DNA of 64,000 nt. Source: Leucoraja ocellata. Taxonomy: Eukaryota. The first letter of the stretch is position 1; each line of letters starts with the position of its first letter. The translations under genes were made by a program, and so were the position numbers. Shown in pieces: positions 6,898 through 38,062 of the stretch. The notes under the pieces are model-generated. The model ran no database searches. It was not told the DNA's origin and was given only the letters and a program-made list of their open reading frames with translations. Where the stretch lies: positions 1,054,001 to 1,118,000 of the forward strand of contig JAWMAR010000392.1 in the NCBI GenBank assembly GCA_036785375.1, given 5' to 3'.

Positions 6898-7110
6898 GGT
6901 ACACAAAAATGCTGGAGAAACTCAGCGGGTGCAGCAGCATCTATGGAGCGAAGGAAATAGGCAATGTTTCGGGCCGAAACCCTTCTTCAGACTGCGGTTT
7001 CGGCCCGAAACGTTGCCCATTTCCTTCGCTCCATAGATGCGGCTGCACCTGCTGAGTTTCTCCAGCATTTTTGTGTACCTTCGATTTTCCAGCATCTGCA
7101 GTTCCTTCTT
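6898..7110. repeat. Palindromic (inverted) PLE terminal-repeat pair
   Basis: ggtacacaaaaatgctggagaaactcagc...gctgagtttctccagcatttttgtgtacc with ~85-bp arms. Similar structures at ~3980-4165, 9283-9465, 12123-12266, 13775-13956, 16160-16342, 19000-19145, 19907-20088, 21998-22184, 30160-30348 and 63330-63462. Confidence 0.8.
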
Positions 7111-8636: not shown

Positions 8637-8716
8637 CTTGTTCAAGTCTTGCCGTGAAACTCTGTTAAACGCAACAAATCCTTCCGCGGCGTCCGACTTT
8701 CTCCTTCGATAATAAA
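8637..8716 (-). CDS. Exon 4, copy e
   Basis: Intact AG/GT; variant first codon, (I)YYRRRK... Confidence 0.55.
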
Positions 8717-10032
8717 CTGACATAAAACAATGAGATAGCAACAGGATTTCTAATTGTGCATTATCCAGAGTCTTACCAATTTGTAGCCATTAAATGAAGG
8801 AAGCAGGGCAGCACGGTGGTGCAGCGGTAGAGATACTGCCCTACAGCCCCAGGGACCTGGGTTCGATCCTGACTGCGGGTGCTGTCTGTACGGAATTTGT
8901 ATGTTCGCCCCGTGACCTGCACGGGTTTTCTCCAAGATCTTTGGTTTCCTCCCACACTCCAAAGATGGACAGGTTTGTAGGTTAATTGGCTTGGTATAAA
9001 TGTAAATTGTCCCGAGTGTGTGTAGGATAGTGGGAACATGATCAAAGTGGACTCAGTGGGCTCTAGGTGTGAAAGTTATCCCTCAGGATCTTTCCCCCCC
9101 TCATCTTTAACCCGTGTCCTCTGGCTCTTGATATCCCTACTCTGGGTAAAAGACGGTACATTTATCTCTTCATGGTCTGATGCACTTCTATAACATCATC
9201 TCTTATCCTGCTGCAATCCAAGCCTGCTCAACCTCTCCCCACAACTCAGGCCCATGAGTCCTGGCAAAGTAAATTTTCTCTGTGGTACACAAAAATGCTG
9301 GAGAAACTCAGCGGGTGCAGCAGCATCTATGGAGCGAAGGAAATAGGCAATGTTTCGGGCCGAAACCCTTCTTCAGACTGCGGTTTCGGCCCGAAATGTT
9401 GCCCATTTCCTTCGCTCCATAGATGCTGCTGCACCCGCTGAGTTTCTCCAGCATTTTTGTGTACCTTCGATTTTCCAGCATCTGCAGTTCCTTCTTAAAT
9501 AAATTTTCTCTGCACCCTTTTCTGCTTATTCATAATCATAATCGTAATTTATTAGCCAAATATGTTTTGCAACATACAAGGGATTTGATTTGCCGTACAG
9601 TCATACCAAAAAAAGGCAGCAAGACACACAAGAGGCTGCTGTCGTGTGGCGCCATCTGGTGGGGATCAACCCCAATAACAGGTCGACCAAAACTGAACAC
9701 AACACTCCAAATGTGTTCTCAAGGAACATAACTTTCAAACTTCTATGTGTAGGAAGGAACTGCAGATGCTGGTTTAAACCAAACATAGACACACAAAGCT
9801 GGAGTAACTCAGCGGGACAGGCAGCATCTCTGGAGAGAAGGAACGGGTGGAATAAATTTATTCCTGTGAAATGTCAAGTGCTGCATCTCAGTAACTCACA
9901 GCTCCACAGCTTCCTGTAAATGGCAACACAGGTAGACAAAGTAGTAAAGGAGGGGTATGGTATGCTTGCCTGCATTGCACGAGCCATTACGTATAAGAGT
10001 TGGGTCGTGCAGATTTGCATAATGCAGCTTTA

Positions 10033-10886
10033 CTAGGGGCGCTGCACTGGCAGCAGCCTCTACCTACAGCCTGTCTGTCATTTCCATCTTTTTTATTATT
10101 TTTAGTTAGTCTAAAGTCTGTTTTAGGAGGAAACTTTAACTTTTCTATGTGGGGGAGGGGGGCAGGGTAAGGGGGAAACCGTCTCCAAGTCTCTTCCTAG
10201 CGGGGACGCGACTATTTCTCCGAGTCGCGTCCTCGCCCCCACCTCGCGGCCTACCAGCTGGATCGGAGCGGCCTTTCCTGCCGGGGACCGGGATCCGGAC
10301 CAGGGCTGCTACAGTGGCGGCGCAGCGCTGGAGTCACCGCGGAGCGGGCGATACCTACCTGGGTCGCCGTTTGGACCTCCGGAGCGTTGGGCCGTTGCTC
10401 CAACATCGTGGAGCTCCGGTGCGGAGAGCTTCCAACGCGGGCGGCGCTGAACGGCATCGTGGAGTCCTGGGGCGCCTTGCAGAGGGCCTACAGCAGCAGT
10501 CTCCACCCGGCGCGGCCTGCGGACTTTGGAAGCCGCCGACTCCGGTAGGAGGGGGCCGACTCTGTGTCCATGCCACTGAGGACGTCCCGCAGCCCCGACG
10601 TCGGACTGGTATCATCCCGGCGAGCGGTCCTGGTCATCGGGCCGCCAGTAGCTGCAACTGCGGAGGGCTTGGGGAGACCCTGACCACGGGGAGCAGTGGA
10701 GGAAGAAGACTGACTTTGGTGCCTTCCCACACAGTGGGAAACTTTGATTCTGCTGTGTGGGGATGTTTTGTGTTAAATTCTATAGTGTGTTGAGTCCTGT
10801 TTATTTTTTTTGTATGGCTGTATGGGAATTCATTTCACTGTGCCATCTGGCACATGTGACAATTAAAATCTATCTATCTATCTATC
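10033..10886 (+). mobile_element. GC-rich non-autonomous retroposon with LINE-like 3' stem-loop and (TCTA)n tail (duplicate at 16910-17763)
   Basis: TTTA TSD relative to the empty site gcagctttatagg in the sister subunit. 3' hairpin gtgccatctggcac. Confidence 0.65.
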
Positions 10887-11251
10887 TTTATAGGACATTG
10901 GTTGATCTGCATTTGTAGTATTGCATGCAGTTCTGGTCACCCCTTACAGGTAGAATGTGGAGGCTTTGGAAAGGGCACAGAAGAGGTTTACCAGAACCAG
11001 CCTGAATTAGTGGGTAATGGCTATGAGTGTGTCATCCGTTTGAAGAAGAGTCTCGACCCAAAACGCCACCCATTCCTTCCCTCCAGAGATTCAAGATTCA
11101 AGAGAGTTTATTGTCATGTGTCCCATATACTCCCTTTGCCTTCCAGATGCTAACATGTTTGGCTAAGGAAGAGGGGTCATTTGACACAATTGATGAAGCA
11201 GATTTTATTTTGCAAATGATTTCTCCTCCCTCCAACCCACTGCCCACTTAC

Positions 11252-11331
11252 CTTGTTCAAGTCTTGCCGTGAAACTCTGTTAAACGCAACAAATCCTTCC
11301 GCGGCGTCCGACTTTCTCCTTCGATAATAAT
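11252..11331 (-). CDS. Exon 4, copy d
   Basis: Intact AG/GT; the peptide is visible within ORF 11177..11359. Confidence 0.55.
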
Positions 11332-12411
11332 CTGACATAAAACAATGAGATAGCAACATGATTTCTAATTGTGCATTATCCAGAGTCTTACCAATTTGTA
11401 GCCATTAAATGAAGGAAGCAGGGCAGCACGGTGGTGCAGCGGTAGAGATACTGCCCTACAGCCCCAGAGACCTGGGTTCGATCCTGACTGCGGGTGCTGA
11501 CTGTACGGAATTTGTATGTTCGCCCCGTGACCTGCACGGGTTTTCTCCAAGATCTTTGTTTCCTCCCACACTCCAAAGATGGACAGGTTTGTAGGTTAAT
11601 TGACTTGGTATAAATGTAAATTGTCCCTAGTGTGTGTAGGATAGTGGGAACATGATCAATGTGGACTCAGTGGGCCAAAGGGCCTGTTTCCGTGCTGTAT
11701 CTCTAAACTAAACTAAAACTAAACACAATACTTTAATGCTGGATTAATATGTTGCACATATAGAGCTTTTTTTATAGTAGATTTATAGTGGATATTGGTC
11801 ACTAATTTAGCCTCAGGGGTGCATAAAGAAATGGGGCCAGAGATGGATGAAGTGAAAGTGTGAGCCATTTGACAATTGGCAGCCAAAACGTGGTGAAATT
11901 CTCCAGATGCGGCACGGTGGCGCAGCGGTAGAGTTGCTGCCTCACAGCACCAGAGACGCAGGTTCGATCCTGACTACGGGTGCTGTCTGTTCGGAGTTTG
12001 TACGTTCTCCCCGTAACCTACGTGGGTTTTCTCCGAGATCTTCGGTTTCTTCCTACACTCCAATGACGAGCAGGTTTGTAGGCTAAATGTTCAAGCAGGA
12101 ACTGCAGATGCTGGAAGATCGAAGGTACACAAAAATGCTGGAGAAACTCAGCGGGTGCAGCAGCATCTATGGAGCGAAGGAAATAGGCGACGTTTCGGGC
12201 CAAAACCCTTCCTTCGCTCCATAGATGCTGCTGCACCCGCTGAGTTTCTCCAGCATTTTTGTGTACCCAGGTTTGTAGGCTAATTGGGTTGGTCAAATTA
12301 TAAAATTGCCCCTCCTGTGTGTAGGATAGTATTAGTGTGTGGGGATCGCTGGTCGTAGCGGGCTCGGTGCCGAAGAGCTTATCTCTAAGCTAAACTAAGC
12401 AGAGACCAGTC

Positions 12412-13349
12412 CATAGAGACAGAAACATAGAAATTAGGTGCAGGAGTAGGCCATTCGGCCCTTCGAGCCTGCACCGCCATTCAATATGATCATGGCTGAT
12501 CATCCAACTCAGTATCCCGTACCTGCCTTCTCTCCATACCCCCTGATCCCCTTAGCCACAAGGGCCACATCTAACTCCCTCTTAAATATAGCCAATGAAC
12601 TGGCCTCAACTACCCTCTGTGGCAGAGAATTCCAGAGATTCACCACTCTCTGTGTGAAAAAAGTTCTTCTCATCTCGGTTTTAAAGGATTTCCCCCTTAT
12701 CCTTAAGCTGTGACCCCTTGTCCTGGACTTCCCTAACATCGGGAACAATCTTCCTGCATCTAGCCTGTCCTTAAGAATTTTGTAAGTTTCTATAAGATCC
12801 CCTCTCAATCTCCTAAATTCTAGAGAGTATAAACCAAGTCTATCCAGTCTTTCTTCATAAGACAGTCCTGACATCCCAGGAATCAGTCTGGTGAACCTTC
12901 TCTGCACTCCCTCTATGGCAATAATGTCCTTCCTCAGATTTGGAGACCAAAACTGCACGCAATACTCCAGGTGTGGTCTCACCAAGACCCTGTACAACTG
13001 CAGTAGAACCTCCCTGCTCCTATACTCAAATCCTCTTGCTATGAAAGCCAACATACCATTCGCTTTCTTTACTGCCTGCTGCACCTGCATGCCTACCTTC
13101 AATGACTGGTGTACCATGACACCCAGGTCTCGCTGCATCTCCCCCTTTCCCAATCGGCCACCATCTAGCCTGTCCAACCCCTTAAGAATTTTGTAAGTTT
13201 CTATAAGATCCCCTCTCAATCTCCTAAATTCTAGAGAGTATAAACCAAGTCTATCCAGTCTTTCTTCATAAGACAGTCCTGACATCCCAGGAATCAGTCT
13301 AGTGAACCGTCTCTGCACTCCCTCTATGGCAATAATGTCCTTCCTCAGA
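12412..13349 (-). mobile_element. CR1 family B ((TTTCTATG)n tail), internally rearranged
   Basis: ORF 12509..13318 contains the QRRFTRLIPG...LDRLD segment twice. Confidence 0.85.
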
Positions 13350-15514
13350 TGTACAGGTTTAGCCCCAGATAGTGTGTGTGGGATAGTTTTAATGTGCAGG
13401 GATTGCAGTTGGGTACGGACTGGACTGAAGGGCCTGTTTCTGCGCTGTATTTCATAACAAAAAACTAAACTAAACTATCCAAATGCTTTTCAACGCTGTG
13501 ATAGTACCTGGCCTCATCTACCTCCTGTCTACAACTCATTCCGTATACCTACCACCCTAGGTGTGAAAGTTGTCCCTCAGGATCTTTCCCCCCTCATCTT
13601 TAACCCGTGTCCTCTGGCTCTTGATATCCCAACTCTGGGTAAAAGACTACATTTATCTCTTCATGATCTGATGCACTTCTATAACATCACCTCTTATCCT
13701 GCTGCAATCCAAGCCTGTTCAACCTCTCCCCACAACTCAGGCCCATGATTCCTGGCAACGTAAATTTTCTCTGTGGTACACAAAAATGCTGGAGAAACTC
13801 AGCGGGTGCAGCAGCATCTATGGAGCGAAGGAAATAGGCAACGTTTCGGGCCGAAACCCTTCTTCAGACTGTGGTTTCGGCCCGAAACGTTGCCCATTTC
13901 CTTCGCTCCAAAGATGCTGCTGCACCCGCTGAGTTTCTCCAGCATTTTTGTGTACCTTCGATTTTCCAGCATCTGCAGTTCCTTCTTAAATAAATTTTCT
14001 CTGCACCCTTTTCTGCTTATTCATAATCATAATCGTAATTTATTAGCCAAGTATGTTTTGCAACATACAAGGGATTTGATTTGCCGTACAGTCATACCAA
14101 AAACAGCAACAAGACACACAAGAGGCTGCTGTCGTGTGGCGCCATCTGATGGGGATCAACCCCAATAACAGGTCGACCAAAACTGAACACAACACTCCAA
14201 ATGTGTTCTCAAGGAACATAACTTTCCAACTTCTATTTGTAGGAAGGAACTGCAGATGCTGGTTTAAACCAAACATAGACACACAAAGCTGGAGTAACTC
14301 AGCGGGACAGGCAGCATCTCTGGAGAGAAGGAACGGGTGGAATATATTTATTCCTGTGAAATGTCAAGTGCTGCATCTCAGTAGCTCACAGCTCCACAGC
14401 TTCCTGTAAATGGCAACACAGGTAGACAAAGTAGTAAAGGAGGGGTGTGGTATGCTTGCCTGCGTTGCACGAGCCATTACGTATAAGAGTTGGGTCGTTC
14501 AGATTTGCATAATGCAGCTTTATAGGACATTGGTTGATCTGCATTTGTAGTATTGCGTGCAGTTCTGGTCACCCCTTACAGATATATTTTGGTGTTGCTC
14601 GTTCTTCACTGGCTCGTCTCCAGTTGGTTCAGAATGCTGCTGCTCGCCTTTTAACAGGGACTCGAAAGAGGGAGCACATATCGCCAATTCTGGCCTCCCT
14701 ACACTGGCTCCCGGTGCACTTTCGGGTTCATTTTAAGATACTGTTATTTGTTTTTAAATCTCTGAATGGGCTCGCCCCGCCTTACCTCTCTGAGCTGCTC
14801 CACCCATACGCTCCTGCCCGGTCTCTCAGGTCAGCTGGTCAGCTGCTCCTGGAGGTACCGAGGTCTAGTCGGAGGCTCAGAGGGGATAGAGCCTTCTCTG
14901 TTGCTGCTCCGGCACTCTGGAACACCCTGCCGTTGCACATCAGACAGGCCCCCTCACTGTCCATCTTCAAATCCAGTGTTAAAACGCATTTTTACTCCCT
15001 GGCTTTTGACCATGCCTGAGGCTTTGCTTCTGTTTGTGGTGTTTTTGATGTTTCTTTATTTTACTTGTCTTTTCCTACTATTTCTTTTGATTGTTATTTT
15101 TGGTGTGTGTTAACTTTTTTGTCAATGATTAGTGATGTACAGCACTTTGTTGCAGCTATGTTTGTTTTTAAAGTGCTCTATAAATAAAATTATTATTATT
15201 GTTATTATTATTATATAATGTGGAGGCTTTGGAAAGGGCACAGAAGAGGTTTACCAGAACCAGCCTGAATTAGTGGGTAATGGCTATGAGTGTGTCATCC
15301 GTTTGAAGAAGAGTCTCGACCCAAAACGCCACCCATTCCTTCCCTCCAGAGATTCAAGATTCAAGAGAGTTTATTGTCATGTGTCCCATATACTCCCTTT
15401 GCCTTCCAGATGCTAACATGTTTGGCCAAGGATGAGGGGTCATTTGGCACAATTGATGAAGCAGATTTTATTTTGCGAATGATTTCTCCTCCCTCCAACC
15501 CACTGCCCACTTAC

Positions 15515-15594
15515 CTTGTTCAAGTCTTGCCGTGAAACTCTGTTAAACTCAACAAATCCTTCCGCGGCGTCCGACTTTCTCCTTCGATAATAAA
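15515..15594 (-). CDS. Exon 4, copy c
   Basis: Intact AG/GT; variant reading (I)YYRRRKSDAAEGFVEFNRVSRQDLNK. Confidence 0.55.
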
Positions 15595-18128
15595 CTGACA
15601 TAAAACAATGAGATAGCAACAGGATTTCTAATTGTGCATTATCCAGAGTCTTACCAATTTGTAGCCATTAAATGATGGAAGCAGGGCAGCACGGTGGTGC
15701 AGCGGTAGAGATACTGCCCTACAGCCCCAGGGACCTGGGTTCGATCCTGACTGCGGGTGCTGTCTGTACGGAATTTGTATGTTCGCCCCGTGACCTGCAC
15801 GGGTTTTCTCCAAGATCTTTGGTTTCCTCCCACACTCCAAAGATGGACAGGTTTGTAGGTTAATTGGCTTGGTATAAATGTAAATTGTCCCGAGTGTGTG
15901 TAGGATAGTGGGAACATGATCAAAGTGGACTCAGTGGGCTCTAGGTGTGAAAGTTATCCCTCAGGATCTTTCCCCCCTCATCTTTAACCCGTGTCCTCTG
16001 GCTCTTGATATCCCTACTCTGGGTAAAAGACGGTACATTTATCTCTTCATGGTCTGATGCACTTCTATAACATCATCTCTTATCCTGCTGCAATCCAAGC
16101 CTGCTCAACCTCTCCCCACAACTCAGGCCCATGAGTCCTGGCAAAGTAAATTTTCTCTGTGGTACACAAAAATGCTGGAGAAACTCAGCGGGTGCAGCAG
16201 CATCTATGGAGCGAAGGAAATAGGCAATGTTTCGGGCCGAAACCCTTCTTCAGACTGCGGTTTCGGCCCGAAATGTTGCCCATTTCCTTCGCTCCATAGA
16301 TGCTGCTGCACCCGCTGAGTTTCTCCAGCATTTTTGTGTACCTTCGATTTTCCAGCATCTGCAGTTCCTTCTTAAATAAATTTTCTCTGCACCCTTTTCT
16401 GCTTATTCATAATCATAATCGTAATTTATTAGCCAAATATGTTTTGCAACATACAAGGGATTTGATTTGCCGTACAGTCATACCAAAAAAAGGCAGCAAG
16501 ACACACAAGAGGCTGCTGTCGTGTGGCGCCATCTGGTGGGGATCAACCCCAATAACAGGTCGACCAAAACTGAACACAACACTCCAAATGTGTTCTCAAG
16601 GAACATAACTTTCAAACTTCTATGTGTAGGAAGGAACTGCAGATGCTGGTTTAAACCAAACATAGACACACAAAGCTGGAGTAACTCAGCGGGACAGGCA
16701 GCATCTCTGGAGAGAAGGAACGGGTGGAATAAATTTATTCCTGTGAAATGTCAAGTGCTGCATCTCAGTAACTCACAGCTCCACAGCTTCCTGTAAATGG
16801 CAACACAGGTAGACAAAGTAGTAAAGGAGGGGTATGGTATGCTTGCCTGCATTGCACGAGCCATTACGTATAAGAGTTGGGTCGTGCAGATTTGCATAAT
16901 GCAGCTTTACTAGGGGCGCTGCACTGGCAGCAGCCTCTACCTACAGCCTGTATGTCATTTCCATCTTTTTTATTATTTTTAGTTAGTCCAAAGTCTGTTT
17001 TAGGGGGAAACTTTTACTTTTCTATGTGGGGGAGGGGGGCAGGGTAAGGGGGAAACCGTTTCTCAGCCTCTTCCTAGCGGGGACGCGACTATTTCTCCGA
17101 GTCGCGTCCTCGCCCCCCATCTCGCGGCCTACCAGCTGGATCGGAGCGGCCTTTCCTGCCGGGGACCGGGATCCGGACCAGGGCTGCTACAGTGGCGGCG
17201 CAGCGCTGGAGTCACCGCGGAGCGGGCGATACCTACCTGGGTCGCCGTTTGGACCTCCGGAGCGTTGGGCCGTTGCTCCAACATCGTGGAGCTCCGGTGC
17301 GGAGAGCTTCCAACGCGGCGGCGCTGAACGGCATCGTGGAGTCCTGGGGCGCCTTGTAGAGGGCCTACAGCAGCAGTCTCCACCCGGCGCGGCCTGCGGA
17401 CTTTGGAAGCCGCCGACTCCGGTAGGAGGGGGCCGACTCTGTGTCCATGCCACTGAGGACGTCCCGCAGCCCCGACGTCGGACTGGTATCATCCCGGCGT
17501 GCGGTCCTGGACATCGGGCCGCCAGTAGCTGCAACTGCGGAGGGCTTGGGGAGACCCTGACCACGGGGAGCAGTGGAGGAAGAAGACTGACTTTGGTGCC
17601 TTCCCACACAGTGGGAAACTTTGATTCTGCTGTGTGGGGATGTTTTGTGTTAAATTCTATAGTGTGTTGAGTCCTGTTTATTTTTTTTGTATGGCTGTAT
17701 GGGAATTCATTTCACTGTGCCATCTGGCACATGTGACAATTAAAATCTATCTATCTATCTATCTTTATAGGACATTGGTTGATCTGCATTTGTAGTATTG
17801 CATGCAGTTCTGGTCACCCCTTACAGGTAGAATGTGGAGGCTTTGGAAAGGGCACAGAAGAGGTTTACCAGAACCAGCCTGAATTAGTGGGTAATGGCTA
17901 TGAGTGTGTCATCCGTTTGAAGAAGAGTCTCGACCCAAAACGCCACCCATTCCTTCCCTCCAGAGATTCAAGATTCAAGAGAGTTTATTGTCATGTGTCC
18001 CATATACTCCCTTTGCCTTCCAGATGCTAACATGTTTGGCTAAGGAAGAGGGGTCATTTGACACAATTGATGAAGCAGATTTTATTTTGCAAATGATTTC
18101 TCCTCCCTCCAACCCACTGCCCACTTAC

Positions 18129-18208
18129 CTTGTTCAAGTCTTGCCGTGAAACTCTGTTAAACGCAACAAATCCTTCCGCGGCGTCCGACTTTCTCCTTCG
18201 ATAATAAT
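18129..18208 (-). CDS. Exon 4, copy b
   Basis: Same 80-nt exon with intact AG/GT, inside the tandem duplication. Confidence 0.55.
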
Positions 18209-21128
18209 CTGACATAAAACAATGAGATAGCAACAGGATTTCTAATTGTGCATTATCCAGAGTCTTACCAATTTGTAGCCATTAAATGAAGGAAGCAGGG
18301 CAGCACGGTGGTGCAGCGGTAGAGATACTGCCCTACAGCCCCAGAGACCTGGGATCGATCCTGACTGCGGGTGCTGACTGTACGGAATTTGTATGTTCGC
18401 CCCGTGACCTGCACGGGTTTTCTCCAAGATCTTTGTTTCCTCCCACACTCCAAAGATGGACAGGTTTGTAGGTTAATTGACTTGGTATAAATGTAAATTG
18501 TCCCTAGTGTGTGTAGGATAGTGGGAACATGATCAATGTGGACTCAGTGGGCCAAAGGGCCTGTTTCCGTGCTGTATCTCTAAACTAAACTAAAACTAAA
18601 CACAATACTTTAATGCTGGATTAATATGTTGCACATATAGAGCTTTTTTTATAGTAGATTTATAGTGGATATTGGTCACTAATTTAGCCTCAGGGGTGCA
18701 TAAAGAAATGGGGCCAGAGATGGATGAAGTGAAAGTGTGAGCCATTTGACAATTGGCAGCCAAAACGTGGTGAAATTCTCCAGAAGCGGCACGGTGGCGC
18801 AGCGGTAGAGTTGCTGCCTCACAGCACCAGAGACGCAGGTTCGATCCTGACTACGGGTGCTGTCTGTTCGGAGTTTGTACGTTCTCCCCGTAACCTACGT
18901 GGGTTTTCTCCGAGATCTTCGGTTTCTTCCTACACTCCAATGACGAGCAGGTTTGTAGGCTAAGTGTTCAAGCAGGAACTGCAGATGCTGGAAGATCGAA
19001 GGTACACAAAAATGCTGGAGAAACTCAGCGGGTGCAGCAGCATCTATGGAGCGAAGGAAATAGGCGACGTTTCGGGCCAAAACCCTTCCTTCACTCCATA
19101 GATGCTGCTGCACCCGCTGAGTTTCTCCAGCATTTTTGTGTACCCAGGTTTGTAGGCTAATTGGGTTGGTAAAATTATAAAATTGCCCCTCGTGTGTGTA
19201 GGATAGTATTAGTGTGCGGGGATCCCTGCTCGTAGCGGGCTCGGTGTGCCGAAGAGCTTATCTCTAAGCTAAACTAAGCAGAGACCAGTCCATAGAAACA
19301 GAAACATAGAAATTAGGTGCAGGAGTAGGCCATTCGGCCCTTCGAGCCTGCACCGCAATTCAATATGATCATGGCTGATCATCCAACTCAGTATCCCGTA
19401 CCTGCCTTCTCTCCATACCCCCTGATCCCCTTAGCCACAAGGGCCACATCTAACTCCCTCTTAAATATAGCCAATGAACTGGCCTCAACTACCCTCTGTG
19501 GCAGAGAGTTCCACAGATTCACCACTCTCTGTGTGAAAAAAGTTCTTCTCATCTCGGTTTTAAAGGATTTCCCCCTTATCCTTAAGCTGTGACCCCTTGT
19601 CCTGGACTTCCCTAACATCGGGAACAATCTTCCTGCATCTAGCCTGTCCAACCCCTTAAGAATTTTGTATGTTTCTATACCTACCACCCTAGGTGTGAAA
19701 GTTGTCCCTCAGGATCTTTCCCCCCTCATCTTTAACCCGTGTCCTCTGGCTCTTGATATCCCAACTCTGGGTAAAAGACTACATTTATCTCTTCATGATC
19801 TGATGCACTTCTATAACATCACCTCTTATCCTGCTGCAATCCAAGCCTGCTCAACCTCTCCCCACAACTCAGGCCCATGATTCCTGGCAACGTAAATATT
19901 CTCTGTGGTACACAAAAATGCTGGAGAAACTCAGCGGGTGCAGCAGCATCTATGGAGCGCAGGAAATAGGCAACGTTTCGGGCCGAAACCCTTCTTCAGA
20001 CGGCGGTTTCGGCTCGAAATGTTGCCCATTTCCTTCGCTCCTTAGATGCTGCTGCACCCGCTGAGTTTCTCCAGCATTTTTGTGTACCTTCGATTTTCCA
20101 GCATCTGCAGTTCCTTCTTAAATAAATTTTCTCTGCACCCTTTTCTGCTTATTCATAATCATAATCGTAATTTATTAGCCAAGTATGTTTTGCAACATAC
20201 GAGGGATTTGATTTGCCGTACAGTCATACCTAATATCTTGGCCTCCACAACGTCTGTGGCAATGAGTTCCACAGATTCACCACCCTGACTAAATGAATTA
20301 AGCAGTTTCTTACTCAACCATCTCATCTTCCCATCACCCACACTCTCCTCCCATCAGGTTCTCCCCCGCCCCTCTCCTCATTGCCATCTGCCCACCCAAC
20401 GTCTCTCCTTTGGTGAGAGGAATGGGTGACGATTTGGAACGAGACCCTTCTTCAGACCCCCATTCCTTCAATCCTGCCTGTCAGAGTTACTCCAGCGTTT
20501 TGTGTCTATCTTTGGCTTAAACCAGTATCTGCAGTTCCTTCCTACACCTTTCTCTTCTTTGGTCCCAGACACCACCATCCCTTCCCTTCCCATCTGATCC
20601 CATCATCTGCAACCCCTGGTCACCTCCATCATTCACATCCCACCCACCATTGTTATCACCATCCCTCTTTAACCCAGTTCAACTATATCCAGCAATCCAT
20701 CCCCTCCTCAACCTGGATCCACTGACCAGGTGCCACCTCTTTCCACCCCCCCACACCCTACTGGTTTTCCCCTCCCCACCCTGATAGTCCAGAGGAAAGG
20801 TCCCAACCCGAAATGTCGACTGTCCATTTCCTTCTCCTGATACTGCCTGACACGCTGAGTTCCTGCAGCTTCGGCACAAAATGCTGGAGCAACTCAGTGG
20901 GTCAGGCAGCATCTCTGGAGACAAGGAAGAGGTGACTATGTTTCGGGTTGAGACCCTTCTTCAGAAGCTCCAGCAGCTCAAATGTATACAACCAGAATCA
21001 CATTCACTCCCTTTGCCTTCCAGATGCTAACATGTTTGGCTAAGGAAGAGGGGTCATTTGACACAATTGATGAAACAGATTTTATTTTGCGAATGACTTC
21101 TCCTCCCTCCAACCCACTGCCCACTTAC

Positions 21129-21208
21129 CTTGTTCAAGTCTTGCCGTGAAACTCTGTTAAACGCAACAAATCCTTCTGCGGCGTCCGACTTTCTCCTTCG
21201 ATAATAAT
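21129..21208 (-). CDS. Exon 4, copy a (juxtamembrane cytoplasmic exon)
   Basis: Acceptor ttgttttatgtcag| and donor AAG|GTAAGT, 80 nt, phase 1 to 0. Reads (N)YYRRRKSDAAEGFVAFNRVSRQDLNK, with a basic stop-transfer cluster. Confidence 0.75.
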
Positions 21209-24708: not shown

Positions 24709-24921
24709 AATTGCTTCTCTCCAGAGATGCTGCCTGTCCCACTGAGTTACTCCCGCTCTTTGTGTCTATCGTCATTCTAAACCAGCGTCTACAGTTCCTT
24801 CCTACACAGTGCTGGTGCAAGCTGCCCTTGTCTCTCGGTATGTGAGACCATGACATCAGTAAACTTGTGATCTACCACTAGATGCTGACCGCCATTCACT
24901 GAGTCAGGAAGGGTCACTTAC

Positions 24922-25056
24922 TCCTGAGGCCTTTGGTCAGCAGTATGGTCAAGCCAATGGTGATTAGGACAAGGAAAAGGGATGCGGGTATAACTGTATC
25001 CATCAGCCTGTTCCGCCCAGATCCTGTTGTAGTCGCGGAAGTGGAGGTGACACTTT
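24922..25056 (-). CDS. Exon 3: Ser/Thr-rich stalk plus transmembrane helix
   Basis: Acceptor ttttattacag| and donor A|GTAAGT, 135 nt, phase 1 to 1. Reads (E)SVTSTSATTTGSGRNRLMDTVIPASLFLVLITIGLTILLTKGLR. Confidence 0.8.
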
Positions 25057-25699
25057 CTGTAATAAAACAGTTGGGTTATTGCAGTAAACTAGATCAGAAG
25101 GGACCACTTCCTCAATGAGGCAGCCAATATCACCAAAGACCCACACAACCCTGGCCACGCTCCCATCCCGCAGCGTGAGAACTGTGATGGGATAGACTGA
25201 GACTGACTCCCTTCCCTCTCCCTTCCCAATCTTTGCACATCCTCAATCCTTTCCACTCCCCACTTTAATTTCATGTATTTTGTGTTGACAGATCAATCTC
25301 CCTACTATCAAGTTCAATCGTATGGTATCAGATGGTATTCGGCTTTTGTTATGGTCAGCTAGTTTAATTTAGTTTATTACTGTCACGTGTATGGAGGTAC
25401 TTGTTTGTTACCTGATATCCAGTCAAAGAAAAGACTTAAACTTGATTACAATCAATCCGTCCACAGTGTACAGATAAAGGATAAAGGAATCCACATTTAG
25501 TGCAAGATAGGGTTTAATTAAAGATATACACAAAATGCTGGGGTAACTCAGCGGATCAGGCAGCATCTCTGGAGAGAAGGAATAGATGACATTTCTAGTA
25601 GGAACCCTTCTTCATATTGCTATTATTTTCCCAAATACTGCAGTTGTGAACAGTGTGATTACATTAACGTGATTAGATGAATGAATTACAGAGTGCAAG

Positions 25700-26895
25700 T
25701 GTAACACAAAATCAACTCAAACACAGCATATAACCATATAACCATATAACAATTACAGCACGGAAACAGGCCACCTCGACCCTTCTAGTCCGTGCCAAAC
25801 ACATAATCTCCCCTAGTCCCATATACCTGCGCTCAGACCATAACCCTCCATTCCCTTCCCATCCATATAACTATCCAATTTATTTTTAAATGATAAAAAC
25901 GAACATGCCTCCACCACCTTCACTGGAAGCTCATTCCACACAGCTACCACTCTCTGAGTAAAGAAGTTCCCCCTCATGTTACCCCTAAACTTCAGTCCCT
26001 TAATTCTCATGTCATGTCCCCTTGTTTGAATCTTCCCTACTCTCAGTGGGAAAAGCTTTTCCACGTCAACTCTGTCTATCCCTCTCATCATTTTAAAAAC
26101 CTCTATCAAGTCCCCCCTTAACCTTCTGCGCTCCAAAGAATAAAGCCCTAACTTGTTCAACCTTTCTCTGTAACTTAGTTGCTGAAACCCAGGCAACATT
26201 CTAGTAAATCTCCTCTGTACTCTCTCTATTTTGTTGACATCCTTCTTATAATTAGGCGACCAAAATTGTACACCATACTCCAGAATTGGCCTCACCAATG
26301 CCTTGTACAATTTTAACATTACATCCCAACTTCTATACTCAAAGCATATGCCATTTAAAAATAAATGATTTAAAATACAGTAAAAAAAGAATATTACCAG
26401 TCCAAATGTATAAACATTTTATTTTTTAACAAGAATTAACAGAATTATGAACTAACAGAATTATGAATCTAACCCTATATCACACACAAAAACATCCCTC
26501 GCAACGTTGATTGCGCTGCGAGTCGGGTCGGGTAGGTCCCGGTTACTACAAAATCAACTCAAAACACTGCTTGTGAGCCATTTAAAAAGAAATGATTTAA
26601 AAATCATTAAAAAGGACAATTACCAGAGTCAAATATTATTATTGACAAGAATTAACAGATGTATGAACTGACAGAATTATGAATCTAACCCTATATCACA
26701 CACAAACTGTTCCCCGTAACGTTGATCACAGTGCGAGTGGGGTCGGTTCCGGTTACTAAAATGGGCGGGGGGGAATGCCCAGGATCCGCTCCGTGGCGTA
26801 CTACACGTCAGCCCAAAGATCTGCTATAAGGTCTTTGCGTCAGCCCATTGCATTTCGCATGAGTAGCCTATCTTGCTGCGCTATAGGGTCTTTGG
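25700..26895. repeat. Unclassified element with ~215-bp tandem dimer, ending GCTATAGGGTCTTTGG
   Basis: The unit caaaatcaactcaaa...gaatctaaccctatatcacacacaaa...ccggttacta occurs twice. A similar terminal motif occurs at ~45600. Confidence 0.5.
25732..26342 (-). mobile_element. CR1-A insertion, TSD AGCATAT
   Basis: ORF 25813..26319. AGCATAT at 25725-25731 and 26343-26349. Confidence 0.9.
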
Positions 26896-27050
26896 TGAGA
26901 ATGGAACAATGGTCTCCGGCGCTGTGAGGCAGCAACTCTACCGCTGCGCCGATGGGAGGGAAGGGGTTACTCTCACTTTAATTACATTGCTATTTGGACT
27001 TTCATGCTTTAATTGCCCCCTCTGTGTTTGAACGCTCCGCCGGTTCCTAC

Positions 27051-27320
27051 CTGTCTCTGTGTGGTGATTGTAGACCGTTAATGTCACGGTGTCTTTCACG
27101 CTGCTGTTTCCGCCGCTGTAAACCGATATCTCGTACACTCCGCTGTCACTGCGCCGTAAATCCCGCAGTAACAGGGACCCATTCACGGGGTAGAGTTGGA
27201 CTCGCCCCGTGTGGGATGGACTGGTCGTCCAGCGAATTGAACAGTTACAACCGGGTCGGTCAGTGTGTGGAGGGCAGGTTACACAGAAAAGCTGGAGAAA
27301 CTCAGCGGGTGCAGCAGCAT
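27051..27320 (-). CDS. Exon 2: Ig V-set domain (C-terminal half native; 5' boundary uncertain)
   Basis: Reads ...HTGRVQLYPVNGSLLLRDLRRSDSGVYEISVYSGGNSSVKDTVTLTVYNHHTET, with V-set D/E/F/G strand motifs (GRV, NGSLxLxxL, DSGxY, TLTV) and no F-strand Cys. Donor G|GTAGGA is phase 1 at 27051. The start at 27320 uses the acceptor tttccttcgctccatag inside a PLE repeat (270 nt, open frame). Confidence 0.7.
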
Positions 27321-27735
27321 CTATGGAGCGAAGGAAATAGGCAACGTTTCGGGCCGAAACCCTTCTTCAGACTGATCGGGGGTGGGGGTGGGTCGGGACA
27401 AGAAAGGGAAAAGGAGGAGTAGCCAGAAGGCTGGAGGGTGGGAGGAGACAGTAGGGGAGCTGAGGAAGGGGAGGAGACAGCAAGGACTAACAGAATTGGG
27501 AGAATTCGATGTTCATGCCCCGGGGGTGTAGACTCCCCAAACGGAATATGAGGTGCTGTTCCTCCAATTTCCGGTGCTGCTCGCTGTGGCCATGGAGGAG
27601 ACCCAGGACAGAGAGGTCGGAGGCGGAGTGGGAGGGGGAGTTGAAGTGCTGAGCCACCGGGAGGTCAGCTTGGTTATTGTGGACCGAGCGGAGGTGTTCG
27701 GCGATGCTCCCCTACTGTCTCCTCCCACCCTCCAG
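27278..27735 (-). mobile_element. Penelope-like element 3' fragment: GIY-YIG C-terminal region plus terminal repeat with hammerhead motif
   Basis: Minus-strand frame at ~27703-27495 reads AEHLRSVHNNQADLPVAQHFNSPSHSASDLSVLGLLHGHSEQHRKLEEQHLIFRLGSLHPRGMNIEFSQF. Hammerhead core CTGAAGA...GAAACGTT at 27370-27343. Confidence 0.85.
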
Positions 27736-27741
27736 AGGCCA

Positions 27742-28990
27742 TGGAACAGGCCATGTCGACCCTTCTAGTCCGTGCCGAACACATAATCTCCCCTAGTCCC
27801 ATATACCTGCGCTCAGACCATAACCCTCCATTCCCTTCCCATCCATATAACTATCCAATTTATTTTTAAATGATAAAAACGAACCTGCCTCCACCACCTT
27901 CACTGGAAGCTCATTCCACACAGCTACCACTCTCTGAGTAAAGAAGTTCCCCCTCATGTTACCCCTAAACTTCAGTCCCTTAATTCTCATGTCATGTCCC
28001 CTTGTTTGAATCTTCCCTACTCTCAGTGGGAAAAGCTTTTCCACGTCAACTCTGTCTATCCCTCTCATCATTTTAAAACCTCTATCAAGTCCCCCCTTAA
28101 CCTTCTGCGCTCCAAAGAATAAAGCCCTAACTTGTTCAACCTTTCTCTGTAACTTAGTTGCTGAAACCCAGGCAACATTCTAGTAAATCTCCTCTGTACT
28201 CTCTCTATTTTGTTGACATCCTTCCTATAATTAGGCGACCAAAATTGTACACCATACTCCAGAATTGGCCTCACCAATGCCTTGTACAATTTTAACATTA
28301 CATCCCAACTTCTATACTCAATGCTCTGATTTATAAAGGCCAGCACACCAAAAGCTTTCTTTACCACCCTATCTACATGAGATTCCACTTTCAGGGAACT
28401 GTGCACAGTTATTCCCAGATCCCTCTGTTCTCCTACATTCTTCAATTCCCTACCATTTACCATGTACGTCCTATTTTGATTTGTCCTGCCAAGATGTAGC
28501 ACCTCACACTTATCAGCATTAAACTCCATCTGCCATCTTTCAGCCCTCTCTTCCAACTGGCATAAATCTCTCTGTAGACTTTGAAACTCTACATCATTAC
28601 CCGCAACCCCACCTATCTTAGTATCATCTGCATACTTACTAATCCAATTTACCACACCATCATCCAGATCATTGATGTACATGACAAACAACAGTGGACC
28701 CAACACAGATCACTGTGGCACCCCACTAGTCACTGGCCTCCAACCTGACAAACAACTATCCACCATTACTCTCTGGCATCTCCCATTCAGCCACTGTTGA
28801 ATCCATCTTGCTACTCCACCATTAATACCCAACCATTGAACCTTCTTAACCAACCTTCCATGAGGAACCTTGTCAAAGGCCTTACTGAAGTCCATATACA
28901 CAACATCCACTGCGTTACCCTCATCAATTTCCTGTGTAACATCTTCAAAAAATTCAAGAAGATTAGTTAAACATGACCTTCCAGGCACAA
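27742..28990 (-). mobile_element. CR1-A, RT to 3' end, with stop and frameshift
   Basis: ORFs 28710..28988, 28068..28706 (YADD) and 27793..28071. Confidence 0.9.
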
Positions 28991-31900
28991 ATAACAGCGG
29001 CTCAGCGAACTACTGTACACATTGCTAATCGGGGGATTGTGCTGTGGTATGGCCATACTTTACTGAACTGTATTACAGATGAATTTCACTGTGCAAGTTG
29101 CACATGTAACAATAAAACACAATAGAATAATTGAAGAGGCCACGCACCCAACCAACTGGTTGATACATTTTAAGTTGAAGAAAATCTTGCAGTTGAAGAA
29201 AATTTGAAGAAAATAGTACAATTCACAACAATATGAACTTTGAAATGAGTTGCCCAATAATATCAAATGTAGAGTGAAAGTAGCACAGAAGACCATTCAG
29301 CCTTCCAGATCGTGCTGGCTCTTTATAGAATAACTCGCTGGTTCCACACAGCATTCTCCATACTTTTGTAATTATTTTTATTGGCATATTTCTCCACTTC
29401 CCTCTTAGGAACCACAGTGGAACCTACCCCCTCAACCCCAGACAACAGTATGTTCCAGATCTCAACTTTGTGCTTTATTAAACAAAAACATTATTCTACC
29501 CGGAGATTCTGCCTGTCCCGCTGAGTTACTCCAGCATTTTGTGTCTGTCTTCGGTGCAGACTGGTATCTGCAGTTCCTTCCTGCAAGTTTCACCTCATGT
29601 TGCTCTAAATAGACGGGAAAGGTTTGGAAGGGACAGCAAGCAAGTGGGAATAAGTAGTGAGGCAACGTGGTTAGTAGAGACGAGTTCAGCCGAAGGGTCT
29701 GATTCCGTGCTATATAACTATGACTATCACTCTACCCCTTTATTTCACACCCAAGACTTCCAATCCTCGATCGCTCCTTGAAGAAAACAGCCTCCTACCT
29801 CCAAACCTTTCATTATTTTATATATTTATTGTCAAATCAACCTCTCTTGCACAATAAAAGCTGTCCCAGCCCCTCTAATCCCACTTCATAACCATTTTCT
29901 CATTCTCTTTCATATTCTCCAAGTGTAGTATAGATTATTGGCAGTATGCCGAGGTACAATGTTTTTGTTGCGTGCTAATCAGTCAGTGGAAACACAATAC
30001 ATGGTTACAATCGAGTCATCCACGGTGTACAGATACAAGATAAAGGAAATACATTTAGTGCAAGATAAAGTCCAGTAAAGTCCGATCAAAGATAGCTCGA
30101 GGGTCTCCAATGAGGTGGATAACATCTCATGCGGGCTTGTAGGTTATTTTGTTTCTGTAGGTACACAAAAAAAGCTGTAGAAACTCAGCGGGTGCAGCAG
30201 CGTCTATGGAGCAAAGGAAATAGGCAACGTTTCAGGCAGAAACCCTTCTTCAGACTGAAGAAGGGTTTCGGCCCGAAACGTTGCCTATTTCCTTCGCTCC
30301 ATAGATGCTGCTGCACCCGCTGAGTTTCTCCAACCTTTTTGTGTACCTTCGATTTTCCAGCATCTGCAGTTCCTTCTTAAACATTTAGTTTCTGTACATT
30401 GCTACTAATGTGTAGGGAGTGGATGACGTGGATGTTTTCAAGAGAGAGTTAGATATGGCTCTTAGGACTGACGGAATCAAGGGACATGCGGAGAAAGCAG
30501 GAACAGGGTACTGATTCTGCATGATCAGCAGTGATCATATTGAATGGCGGTGCTGGCTCGAAGGGCCAAATGGCCTACTCCTGCACCTATTTTCTATGTT
30601 TCTATGAATAACACGTGTGCATGGGTGATCAATGGTCAGCGTGGGCTTGATGGGCTGAAGGGCCTGTTTCCATGCTATGTGAAGTCATAGAGTCATGCAG
30701 GATGGAAACAGGCCCCTCAGCCGAACCTGCCCTTGCGGACCAAAATGCCCCATCTACACTAGTCTTACATACCTGTACGTACGTTGTCCCATATCCCTCT
30801 AAACCTGTCTTATCCATCCTGTATCTGTAAATGTTTCTGGGTCCTCTCTATCGTGTTCATACCCTTTCTAAAATGGTCGATGAGAATTGAATATATCACT
30901 CCAGTTTGAGGTTAAACCGGTGTTTCACAAATAGTTCAGTGTGACTTCTCTGCTTCTAACGTTCTATGAATAAAACCCATGATTGCGTGTACCTTATTAA
31001 CTGCTTTCTCAATAGGTCTAGTCACGTACCATGACCTGTACACATGTAAAGAGTAAAGCAGCCACTTTGCACAGATGAGGTTCCCACAAAGAGAAAGCCG
31101 GTTTGATTCAACCATTTGTTTCAGTGGTAGCGGTGTGGAATGAGCTTCCAGTGGAAGTGGTGGAGGCAGGTTCATTGGTATCATTTAAAAATAAATTGGA
31201 TAGGCATATGGATGAGAAGGAAATGGAGGGTTATGGTATGAGTGCAGGCAGGTGGGACTAAGGGGGGAAAAAATTTGTTCGGCACGGACTTGTAGGGCCG
31301 AGATGGCCTGTTTCCGTGCTGTAATTGTTATATGGTTATATGGTTAACTGGTGACTCTGTACATTGTCTCAGTGTACTACTGCGATACACTTGTACTGTA
31401 GCTGAGATGCTGATCTAAGATGTATCTACGTGCTTATGTATAGTGATACTTGTACTGAACTGTACACAAAAATGAAATTCACTGAACCTCGAGTGTCAGG
31501 GGTTGTGGAGAGAAAGCAGGGGAAAGGGGTTGAGAGGGAGAGATAGATCAGCCATGATTGAATGGTAGTGTAGACTTGATGGGCCAAAAGGTCTAATTCT
31601 GCTCCTATCACTTGTGAACATGAGAGATATAAAGACCGTTGACCTATTGAGACATTTGGCCCACAATGTCCATGAAGAGTGTAACACCGGTCTAAACTAA
31701 TCTCTGTCTGCACATGATGACTATCCCCCTATTCCCAGCATATCCATGTGTCTATCTAAAAGCCTCCAAAACACCACTATCATATCTGCCTCCATCACCA
31801 CACCCCTGGCAGGGCCACCATCCTCTGTGTAGAAAGATAGAAACATAGGAACATAGAAAATAGATGCAGGAGTAGGCCATTCGACCCTTCGAGCCAGCAC

Positions 31901-32971
31901 CGCCATTCAATATGATCATGGCTGATCACCCAAAATCAATATCCCGTTCCTGTTTTCTCCCCATATCCCTTGATTCCATTAGCTCTAAGAGCTAAATCTA
32001 ACCCTCAATTGAAAGCATCCAGTGAATTGGCCTCCACTGCCTTCTGTGGCAGAGAATTCCACAGATTCACAACTCTCTGGGTGAAAATGTTTTTCCTCAT
32101 CTCGGTCCTAAATGGTCTACCCCTTATTCTTAAACTGTGTGACCCCTGGATCTGGATTCCCCCAACATCAGGAAAAACAACAGCCCCTTCAGCCCAACTT
32201 GCCCACACCGGCCAACATTGGCCAGCTACACTAACAGGCTAAGTGGGGCCTCGCATGGTGGCATAGATGGGCCGAGGAAAGAACACTGTTATATATAATC
32301 TTGTTCAAAACACTAAATGCTGGAGTGACTCAGCGGGGCAGGCAAAATCCAGAGAAGCATGGAGTCACAGAGTGATACATCGTGGAAACAGGTCCTTCGG
32401 CCAACCGAGTCCTCGCCAACCAGCCGACACACACTCAGGATAATTTTACAATTTACTGCAGACCTGAATTAATAAACAATTGATCTTGAATTAATCTCCA
32501 CCAGACGTTCCCCTAACACAAACCTGACCTGTTGGTAATCCCTTTGTGCAATTGTAACAATTTATAGTCATAGAGTGATACAGTGTGGAAACAGGTACTT
32601 CAGTCCAACTTGCCCACATGGTCAACTTGCCCCAGATGCACTAGTCCCACCTGCCCGCGTTTAGTCCATATCCTTCCAAACATGTCCTATCCATGTTCCT
32701 GTCTAACTGTTTATTAAACGATGGATATAGTCCCAGCCTCAACTACCTCCTCTGGCAGATTGTTCCATTCACCTGCCACCCTTTGTGCGAAAACGTTACC
32801 CCTCAGATTCCTATTAAATCTTTTCCCCTCACCTTAAATCTATGTTCCCTGGTCCTCGATTCACCAACTTCCCGATCTATTCCTCTCGTGATTTGATACA
32901 CTGTGGAGGATTCCTATGTGGAGCGAACTCGCATTACAACAAAGACAAATAAAACAATCTCACCGACTTAC

Positions 32972-33065
32972 CCGAGAGACAAACCCAAGTGGCGGCGAGG
33001 ATGAAAATGCCGGAGAAATCGTTTTCCCTGCGAGTTCTTCGCCGCGGTGTACGATTCTCGGACAT
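32972..33065 (-). CDS. Exon 1 (leader/signal peptide) of predicted CD2/SLAM-like Ig receptor
   Basis: ATG at 33065 reads MSENRTPRRRTRRENDFSGIFILAATWVCLS, followed by a G|GTAAGT consensus donor in phase 1. Basic n-region plus hydrophobic core, in a CpG-rich unique segment. Confidence 0.7.
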
Positions 33066-34078
33066 CACCAGTTCGAATGTGTCTTGCGGCGCTTCAGCGA
33101 GAGCGGGTACCAGTGACAAAAACACAGCGGCGCAGAGGTGGAGTTACTGCCTCACAGCGCTTGCAGCGCCAGAGCCCCGGGTTCGATCCCGACCTCGGGT
33201 GCTGTCTGTATGGAGTTTGCACGTTCTCCCCGTGACCCGCGCGGGGTTTCTCCTCGATCTTCGGTTTAAAATTGGTATGAATGTAAAATTGTCTCTAGTG
33301 TGTGTAGGATAGTGTTAGTGTGCTGGGCATCGCTGCTCGGTGCGGGCTCGATGGGCCGAAAGGTCTGTTTCCGCGCTGTACCGCTAAACTACAAAGTAAA
33401 TGAAACACAACTGCATCGGGGCCAACAATCGCAGAGGTAAAGCGAAACGTCTCCTCTGTCAGGCTTCAAGTCGAAATTGCAGGAGGTGCCAGTTCTTGTC
33501 GAGGAGCGGCTCTGGGAGGGGAGGTGTTTAATTTCGTGAGGCTCTCCATCTGAACAACTCGCGGGTGCAAACACTTACCACAGCAAACTGTGTACAGTGA
33601 CATTATGTGTCGATCTACGGTGTAAACCGGCTTCCGCAGTTCCTTCTTGCATAAAATCACGAGGGGAATAGATCGGAGAGAAGCACAAAGTCTCTTGCCC
33701 AGAATAGGTGAAGCGAGCAGCAGAGGGCATCGCTTTCCGGTGAAGGGGGAAAGATTTAATAGGAATCTGAGAGGTAACTTGCTCGACGGGCCGAATGGCC
33801 TACTCGTGCACCTATTTTTCTATGTTTCTGTCCTGGGCTTCCTTCAGTAGCAAAGTGAGGGTACAGCATATTTTGCGTTGGCAGCTTGCAACCCAGCGAA
33901 CATCAATGTCTCTAATTTCCAGTAACTCCTCCATACCCATCCCCCCCCCCCCCCCCCCCCCCATCCCCTACCGTAGTCAGCATTCTAGTTCCACTGTTCG
34001 CATCCTTGTACCCCTGTCAAGTTGCACATTTATCCGGCGACAGTGTGGGTTTCCTCCAGGTGCTCCAGCTTCCTCCCA

Positions 34079-37584: not shown

Positions 37585-38062
37585 AGCCCCGCTGGGCCCA
37601 CCCCACCCCTGCTGGCCCACGCCACCCCCACTGGGCCCAAGCTACCCCCGCTGGCCCACGCCACCCCCGCTGGGCCCACGCCACCCCCGCTGGGCCCACG
37701 CCACCCCCGCTGGCCCACACCACCCTCGCTGGGCCCAAGTCGCCCAAGCTGGGCCACGCCACCCCCGCTGGGCCCACACCAGCCACGCTGGGCCCAAGCC
37801 ACCCATGCTGGGCCCACGCCATGCCCACTGGGCACAAGCCACCCCCGCTGGGCCCACACCACCCTAACTGGGCCCACGCCACCCCCGCTGGGCCCACGCC
37901 ACCCCCACTGGGCCCACGCCACCCCCGCTGAGCCCACACCACCCCCGCTGAGCCCAAGCCTCTCCCGCTTGGCCCACACCACCCCTGCTGACCCCATTGG
38001 GCCCACGCCACCCCCGCTGACCCCCACTGGGCCCACGCCACCCCAGCTGGGCCCACGCCACC
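37585..38062. repeat. GC-rich minisatellite, ~20-21-bp unit CCCCGCTGGGCCCACGCCACC
   Basis: About 22 tandem degenerate units, producing spurious long ORFs in most frames. Confidence 0.9.

Follow-up and report, generated by a model that had tools for sequence, protein, structure and literature searches.

Minimal hammerhead ribozymes occur in the terminal repeats of Penelope-like elements (PLEs), as reviewed in PMC6765202. A lone minimal PLE hammerhead showed no cleavage and dimers showed low cleavage (PMC4209133). In D. virilis one hammerhead variant has a 2-bp helix I, and the 5' border of helix I is where the Penelope intron stops, with the ribozyme differing before and after splicing (PMC4209133). 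A lizard PLE hammerhead showed no cleavage without the PLE protein and cut when the protein was added, and no RNA-seq ends were reported at its cut site (PMC11167929). The same source describes the Poseidon PLE of Anolis as ending at either of two 3' sites, a short tail apart. Finally, transcript data have documented retroelement exonisation in immune receptor genes whose normal isoform is still available (PMC10515820, PMC7617988).

Here we describe a receptor gene in a skate in which a PLE fragment abuts the surviving half of a V-set exon. A preliminary description of this DNA had suggested that exonisation of the repeat may rescue a damaged receptor, possibly with splicing in competition with ribozyme self-cleavage, and had named a pseudogene as the alternative. 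A broken gene fits best: we put at about 0.75 the probability that a recent PLE insertion has produced what is likely a loss-of-function allele in a decaying receptor cluster.

The receptor gene, its family and its cluster

The window (G000:C392:1054001-1118000, the whole 64-kb stretch analysed, in a 3.4-Gb genome) carries a receptor gene on the minus strand whose nearest database relatives are skate proteins. Its exons are as follows.

33065-32972, minus strand: signal-peptide-like leader exon, 94 nt, with an ATG at 33065 and a phase-1 GT donor
27277-27051, minus strand: surviving 3' half of the V-set exon, which spans 75 codons and runs from the conserved Cys as far as the native GT donor
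25056-24922, minus strand: stalk and transmembrane (TM) exon of 135 nt, with phase 1 at both ends and present once in the assembly
8637-21208, minus strand: 80-nt cytoplasmic exon in five tandem copies, phase 1 to 0
4822-4688, minus strand: terminal exon, which carries the conserved tyrosine motifs TTYCLL and IIYAVP and the stop codon

The leader exon matches the N-termini of P0002 and P0006, and we take the tyrosine motifs of the tail to be ITIM-like. The copies of the cytoplasmic exon (21208-21129, 18208-18129, 15594-15515, 11331-11252 and 8716-8637) are 96-100% identical and lie in nested tandem duplications. As this exon starts in phase 1 and ends in phase 0, an mRNA with two copies would be thrown out of frame, so one copy is usable per mRNA; the array could be a real duplication or a mixing of haplotypes. 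The window also holds a tandem array of a 20-nt unit in at least 15 registers (37593-38030).

Proteins P0001-P0007, together with L002 1302-1727, form an uncharacterised receptor family common to sharks, rays and skates. Its members have one V domain, an extra cysteine pair and two tail tyrosine motifs, and they fall into two subtypes that differ in their leaders and TM exons. The uncharacterised elasmobranch proteins LOC116990025, LOC144602877, LOC127586104 and LOC144496850 are alike in having a single V domain, a TM segment and a tail with tyrosine motifs. The best PDB sequence matches of the V domain are CEACAM, JAML, CD48 and CD2. Like the N-terminal V domains of CEACAM and CD2, it is a V-set domain that lacks the usual F-strand cysteine (the Ig strand names are our presumed assignment); unlike them, the elasmobranch proteins have the extra cysteine pair and no C-type domain. 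The mammalian matches are weak and cover the C-terminal half only, and any placement in these families is tentative, by sequence similarity.

The TM exon and the cytoplasmic exons of the window gene occur nowhere else in the assembly, and all of its exons other than the V exon are open. The window gene is therefore not a spare duplicate, and its status as the sole locus counts against reading it as a broken allele. In paralogue B (L002; leader at 1122788, whole V at 1131084, TM near 1136060) the TM exon is frameshifted relative to P0007, and in paralogue C (L003; leader at 800550, V at 796679, TM at 790322) the V exon is short of 1 nt through a deletion and the TM exon is split. These one-base frameshifts could be assembly errors; as assembled, all three receptor copies in the cluster look damaged. 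Isolated exons are also present:

G000:C392:861650-861895: orphan leader copy, not followed by a V exon and part of an inverted duplication whose end is at window position 31346
G000:C392:401541-401821: orphan terminal exon, standing alone in the 340-420 kb interval of the contig

The pattern of the cluster looks like birth-and-death turnover. The inverted segmental duplication pairs window 31346-58566 with G000:C392:864625-832689, and its longer blocks are mostly 92-98% identical. The final 165 nt of the V exon (27215-27051) differ from paralogue B at 3 positions and the preceding part differs far more, a step in similarity that suggests recent gene conversion. Distant whole V exons, open and 35% identical to P0002, lie at G000:C849:322227-322601 and 395339-395707.

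The Penelope-like insertion and the lost half of the V exon

The intron side of the V remnant is made up of the following elements.

27745-28992, minus strand: high-copy LINE 3' fragment directly 5' of the PLE, with multi-copy HSPs and RT-like ORFs; presumably of CR1 type
27735-27278, minus strand: PLE fragment, 458 nt, abutting the 3' half of the V exon
27706-27735: inverted 30-nt segment at the 5' end of the PLE, the reverse complement of 27460-27431
27704-27278, minus strand: 5'-truncated PLE body, with the end of the GIY-YIG ORF (stop at 27489-27487), the 3' UTR and the terminal repeat

The fragment contains the final codons of the RT and GIY-YIG ORF. A sister copy, L108, has an open frame of 571 aa in which RVT_1 was found with E 7e-7, at the cut-off, and GIY-YIG with E 0.0035, below the cut-off. 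The family thus has the features of Penelope-like elements: a single ORF with RT followed by GIY-YIG (in L108) and a terminal repeat with a hammerhead and an optional 3' tail. From 2209 candidates genome-wide we scored 40 copies and compared the best 29 other loci, chosen as the closest; the window copy differs from these by 1-3 positions per 427 nt, and the stretch 27393-27278, which includes the candidate splice acceptor described below, is identical in 28 of the 29. Among the same 29 copies there are two 3' end sites about 36 nt apart, and the window copy ends at the one without a tail.

To judge from its sequence, the insertion is very young, ended normally and struck mid-exon, with the upstream half lost. 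The PLE inserted at its normal 3' end site as a 5'-truncated copy with a 30-nt inversion, and the deletion of the upstream half-exon would have arisen with the insertion or soon after it. A literature search returned no paper that combined a Penelope-like element with target site deletion, inversion and truncation.

As the preliminary description stated, the V exon has lost its 5' half and the PLE abuts the remainder; the half-exon is absent from the 64-kb window and the junction is real. Searches of 428 kb of flanking contig, together with genome-wide protein searches, found only the two paralogues and scattered fragments of the lost half. Candidates for a displaced half-exon at G000:C392:1134844, 1129487, 1133268 and 797276-797503 were diverged, broken or owned by a paralogue, and none continues the exon. 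This V exon is the gene's sole exon for the extracellular domain, and its native acceptor and first 58 codons are gone. The remnant retains 89% amino acid identity to residues 252-326 of P0001, and the conserved Cys is kept at the junction with the PLE. In an alignment of eight sequences, 15 of the 39 invariant columns, including the core tryptophan W39, fall in the lost half.

All seven database relatives (from three skate genera, sawfish, electric ray and shark; five taken from 824 candidates and two from 41 in a second search) have a whole V domain, and the PLE insertion is missing from the gene models of all seven. Run X9, which carries the organism label of run X1 and comes from another sample, holds a V sequence free of the PLE: one 311-nt contig alone covers the 3' half of V, with its letters 76-294 on 27277-27059 at 8 differences, and its first 75 letters are not PLE-like. 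A second X9 contig matches 25060-24939, where 10 of 122 nt differ (92% identity). The lengths of the pieces and the exon edges suggest that X9 contains RNA in which a spliced, PLE-free V is joined to a similar TM exon; given the 92% identity in TM, this may be a distant allele or lineage or another paralogue.

One explanation for these observations is that repeat-rich reads were misjoined in the assembly and that in reality the V exon is whole. The region of the contig is repeat-dense and segmentally duplicated, which is consistent with such an error, as is the PLE-free V of X9. However, the junction falls exactly at the 3' end site of the family and the 5' end of the element carries a private inversion. 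In addition, when 31 words were sampled, runs X1 and X2, which may derive from the source sample, contained fractions of 1.00 and 0.97 of them (of 361 words, 30 are specific to the junction, and the chance that the sample included none of these is 0.07). We therefore consider misassembly very unlikely. In run X3 the share of words was 0.77, where 0.63 is expected without the PLE allele and 0.92 with an intact allele.

Splice acceptors and predicted products

The PLE fragment contains several potential acceptors.

27371-27461, minus strand: three competing PLE acceptors from a scan of AGs, with first exon bases at 27459, 27430 and 27371
27321-27345, minus strand: candidate acceptor with AG at 27322-27321, pyrimidine fraction 0.81, PLE family consensus

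There are 25 AGs in 27760-27150, of which four are in phase. Two of these four open a stop-free exon, with pyrimidine fractions of 0.81 (27321) and 0.52, so that 27321 alone is in frame, open and preceded by a good pyrimidine tract. The resulting exon, 27320-27051, would be 270 nt long; read in phase 1 from the leader exon it has no stop, and it closes with the GT donor. The acceptors at 27459 (pyrimidine fraction 0.90) and 27430 (0.86) are out of frame, and that at 27371 (0.71) is in phase and runs immediately into TGA. A predicted 30-bp hairpin covers acceptor 27430 and borders 27459, and it may hide both. The claim that the PLE supplies the in-frame acceptor of the Ig exon therefore stands as far as the AG, its phase and the open 270-nt exon go, while the supplying itself is a prediction. 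The candidate acceptor is as good as the gene's own and it pairs with the native donor at normal exon length, and this counts against the broken-allele reading. In our judgement, the chance that AG 27321 is used in a sizeable share of transcripts falls somewhat short of even.

The frame match itself calls for little explanation. From AG 27321 to the end of the PLE exactly one of the three reading frames is stop-free, so an insertion at the PLE end site has a 1-in-3 chance of matching the frame, and the in-frame acceptor would be within chance, a one-in-three accident. Because the acceptor is the unchanged family consensus it shows no adaptation, and the V remnant is still open because the insertion is young and has had no time to decay. 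Of the marks of exonisation, an in-frame acceptor with a pyrimidine tract is present and a signature of selection (sequence change or conservation) is absent.

Three outcomes would be expected from transcripts of this allele. Those using AG 27321 would encode a predicted protein of 237 aa with half an Ig domain that is likely misfolded; those using the upstream PLE acceptors would meet a frameshift or an immediate stop and would likely decay; and those skipping the remnant would encode, in frame, a predicted protein of 147 aa with no Ig domain. The allele, with its leader, TM and tail exons intact, would then likely yield no working ligand-binding receptor.

Could the 237-aa chimera be functional? 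In this scenario the PLE AG would be the main acceptor and the half-Ig protein would be stable and signal through its tyrosine motifs. The choice of a single good in-frame acceptor out of 25 AGs, the retained Cys, the hairpin predicted over or beside the rival acceptors and the status of this locus as the only complete one in the assembly are consistent with such a role. On the other hand, 15 PLE-coded residues take the place of residues 194-251 of P0001 (58 residues) in the chimera, and half of the domain and the core Trp are lost. Matched to the Pfam V-set profile, the chimera covers only positions 66-109 of 109, below the cut-off, whereas P0002 and P0004 cover positions 3-109 and 3-108; it is without the complete set of V-set strands with a core tryptophan. 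Half of a V sandwich is not expected to fold normally. AlphaFold gave a pLDDT of 46.5 for the chimera and 50 for the intact control, both models being of low confidence, and Foldseek at E<=0.001 found no match for the chimera or for the control, which was itself poorly modelled, so that this comparison does not tell the two apart.

The transcript and gene model searches also failed to favor this scenario. No 32972-27320 joint was among those listed for four runs on 24800-33200, a repeat-swamped interval with 3228 further joints (the small-share metatranscriptome runs X16-X20 being excluded), and RNA runs X23 and X24 from a relative (about 5% of the reads of each) yielded a single read over the V remnant. 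Searched for in protein models, the PLE peptide gave six hits: two skate gene models with the peptide, one unnamed ORF, one short Logan ORF and two chance matches. Among these six, no gene model clearly starts the peptide at AG 27321; of the two skate models, P0013 takes in sequence upstream of the AG and P0009 is ambiguous. We consider a functional chimera unlikely, and the suggestion that exonisation rescues the receptor is not borne out, as the PLE peptide would replace 58 residues that include 15 of the 39 invariant columns.

Another possibility is that skipping of the remnant is itself the useful outcome, with the leader joined to TM to make a ligand-blind 147-aa membrane protein that is kept as a regulator. 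The phases at the two exon ends (1 and 1) would permit this, the frame is open to the normal stop, and the exons for the TM segment and the tail are undamaged and conserved. However, with so recent an insertion intact exons are no sign of selection, and the 32972-to-25056 joint was absent among the joints listed. This, too, is quite improbable, and we return to a likely loss-of-function allele as the best account of the locus.

The hammerhead motif and comparison with known systems

Upstream of the candidate acceptor, the terminal repeat contains one further feature.

27343-27370, minus strand: minimal type-I hammerhead motif, core CTGAAGA starting at 27370

The motif consists of the CUGAAGA core, an extra A, a 4-bp stem II with a UUCG loop, GAAA and a GUU cut site, with a palindromic ACGU in place of stem III and a stem I of 2 bp. 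It has what is expected of a minimal PLE hammerhead: the core, stem II, a palindrome for stem III and an NUH cut site. Cleavage is predicted at 27343|27342, leaving 22 nt before the exon; this agrees with the motif and the distance previously reported, and the accompanying remark that the core sits in the branch-point zone holds by distance and by nothing beyond it. Among 50 local cores, 45 have a 13-nt spacer, and in these the four positions of stem II pair in 40, 39, 40 and 37 cases; the core was part of the search pattern and the stem II pairs were not. Stem I amounts to 2 contiguous pairs, both in this motif and in each of the 34 cores of the young family, short of the metazoan norm of 4-5 bp. 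One copy, at G000:C392:1001059, has a 6-bp stem I.

An AG lies just before helix I in the window (27372-27371) and in 30 of the 50 local hammerhead cores, and in ORF-linked PLE copies it follows a pyrimidine-rich tract. It is possibly the PLE's own acceptor. Where copies of the PLE terminal repeat fold back on each other almost perfectly, the introns would contain long hairpins of about -150 to -170 kcal/mol (window 6900-7077, 9286-9463, 13777-13954, 16163-16340, 19909-20086, 30163-30345 and others), which are likely double-stranded RNA and editing substrates.

If the hammerhead cut the pre-mRNA, aided by a second copy or by the PLE protein, it could compete with splicing and act as a switch. 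The intact core and the pairing of stem II speak for this, as do the cleavage of the lizard PLE hammerhead in the presence of PLE protein (PMC11167929) and the youth and open ORFs of the skate PLE family. Several observations stand against it. Rfam gave 26 matches at E<=1, none of them to a hammerhead family; the hits were hairpin-type miRNA look-alikes that fell short of the gathering score. ViennaRNA gave stem II a probability of about 0.001 and stem I a probability of 0 in three folds, preferring an alternative structure. Of the seven other sense-strand cores in the gene, hairpins of -153 to -172 kcal/mol sequester six, and the remaining core is degenerate. Co-folding of two copies gave no hammerhead dimer, in an energy model that represents such dimers poorly. 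For X23 and X24 no pile-up of read ends at 27342-27343 was listed, at several-hundred-fold coverage over the relative's PLE copies, a weak indication in fragmented poly(A) data. As single motifs are inactive and dimers barely active in related elements (PMC4209133), a switch of this kind is very doubtful. Competition between splicing and self-cleavage, as raised earlier, is unlikely given the 2-bp stem I, the lack of stem III, the lack of a free partner and relatives that are inert alone; cutting assisted by the PLE protein is the loophole in this argument. The hammerhead is probably a passenger that would rarely cut the receptor RNA.

It could be speculated that the two activities are combined, with the PLE repeat a working acceptor and the hammerhead activated by PLE protein. 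The result would be a ribozyme-gated exon through which the immune system senses whether the transposon is active: with a quiet transposon the ligand-blind signalling form would be spliced, and with an active one the mRNA would be cut. We regard this as extremely improbable. The parts of the literature searched, PMC4079198 and 10.64898/2026.07.22.740005 among them, contained no report of the receptor locus or of a host exon gated by a PLE hammerhead, although elasmobranch hammerheads may be listed in supplements.

If the preferred reading of a recent, disabling insertion is correct, the locus would be a clean case of an active Penelope family disabling a conserved, uncharacterised receptor of sharks and skates, by a mechanism that is ordinary rather than surprising. 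It would be informative for the mechanics of PLE insertion (a normal 3' end, a 5' inversion and a neighboring deletion) and for the turnover of receptor genes in elasmobranchs. Were the acceptor used and the hammerhead to cut in cells, the importance would be far greater, as our literature searches brought up no ribozyme-gated host exon derived from a PLE.

These data place the locus beside three described systems. The skate motif resembles the minimal hammerheads of PMC4209133 in its type-I core, the extra base between positions 9 and 10.1, the G10.1-C11.1 pair, the palindrome that replaces stem III and the location in a terminal repeat; unlike them, it is a lone free copy in a host intron and is known from sequence alone. 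As in the exonised immune receptors of PMC10515820 and PMC7617988, a retroelement splice signal lies inside a receptor gene and may give a truncated or altered isoform; in contrast to these, the normal exon of the skate gene is destroyed, the signal is the family consensus and the acceptor is predicted. Like Poseidon (PMC11167929), the skate family has an ORF with RT and GIY-YIG, a hammerhead in the repeat and two 3' end sites, but it belongs to another subfamily and the window copy is a truncated 458-nt fragment with a 5' inversion and an adjacent deletion of host sequence.
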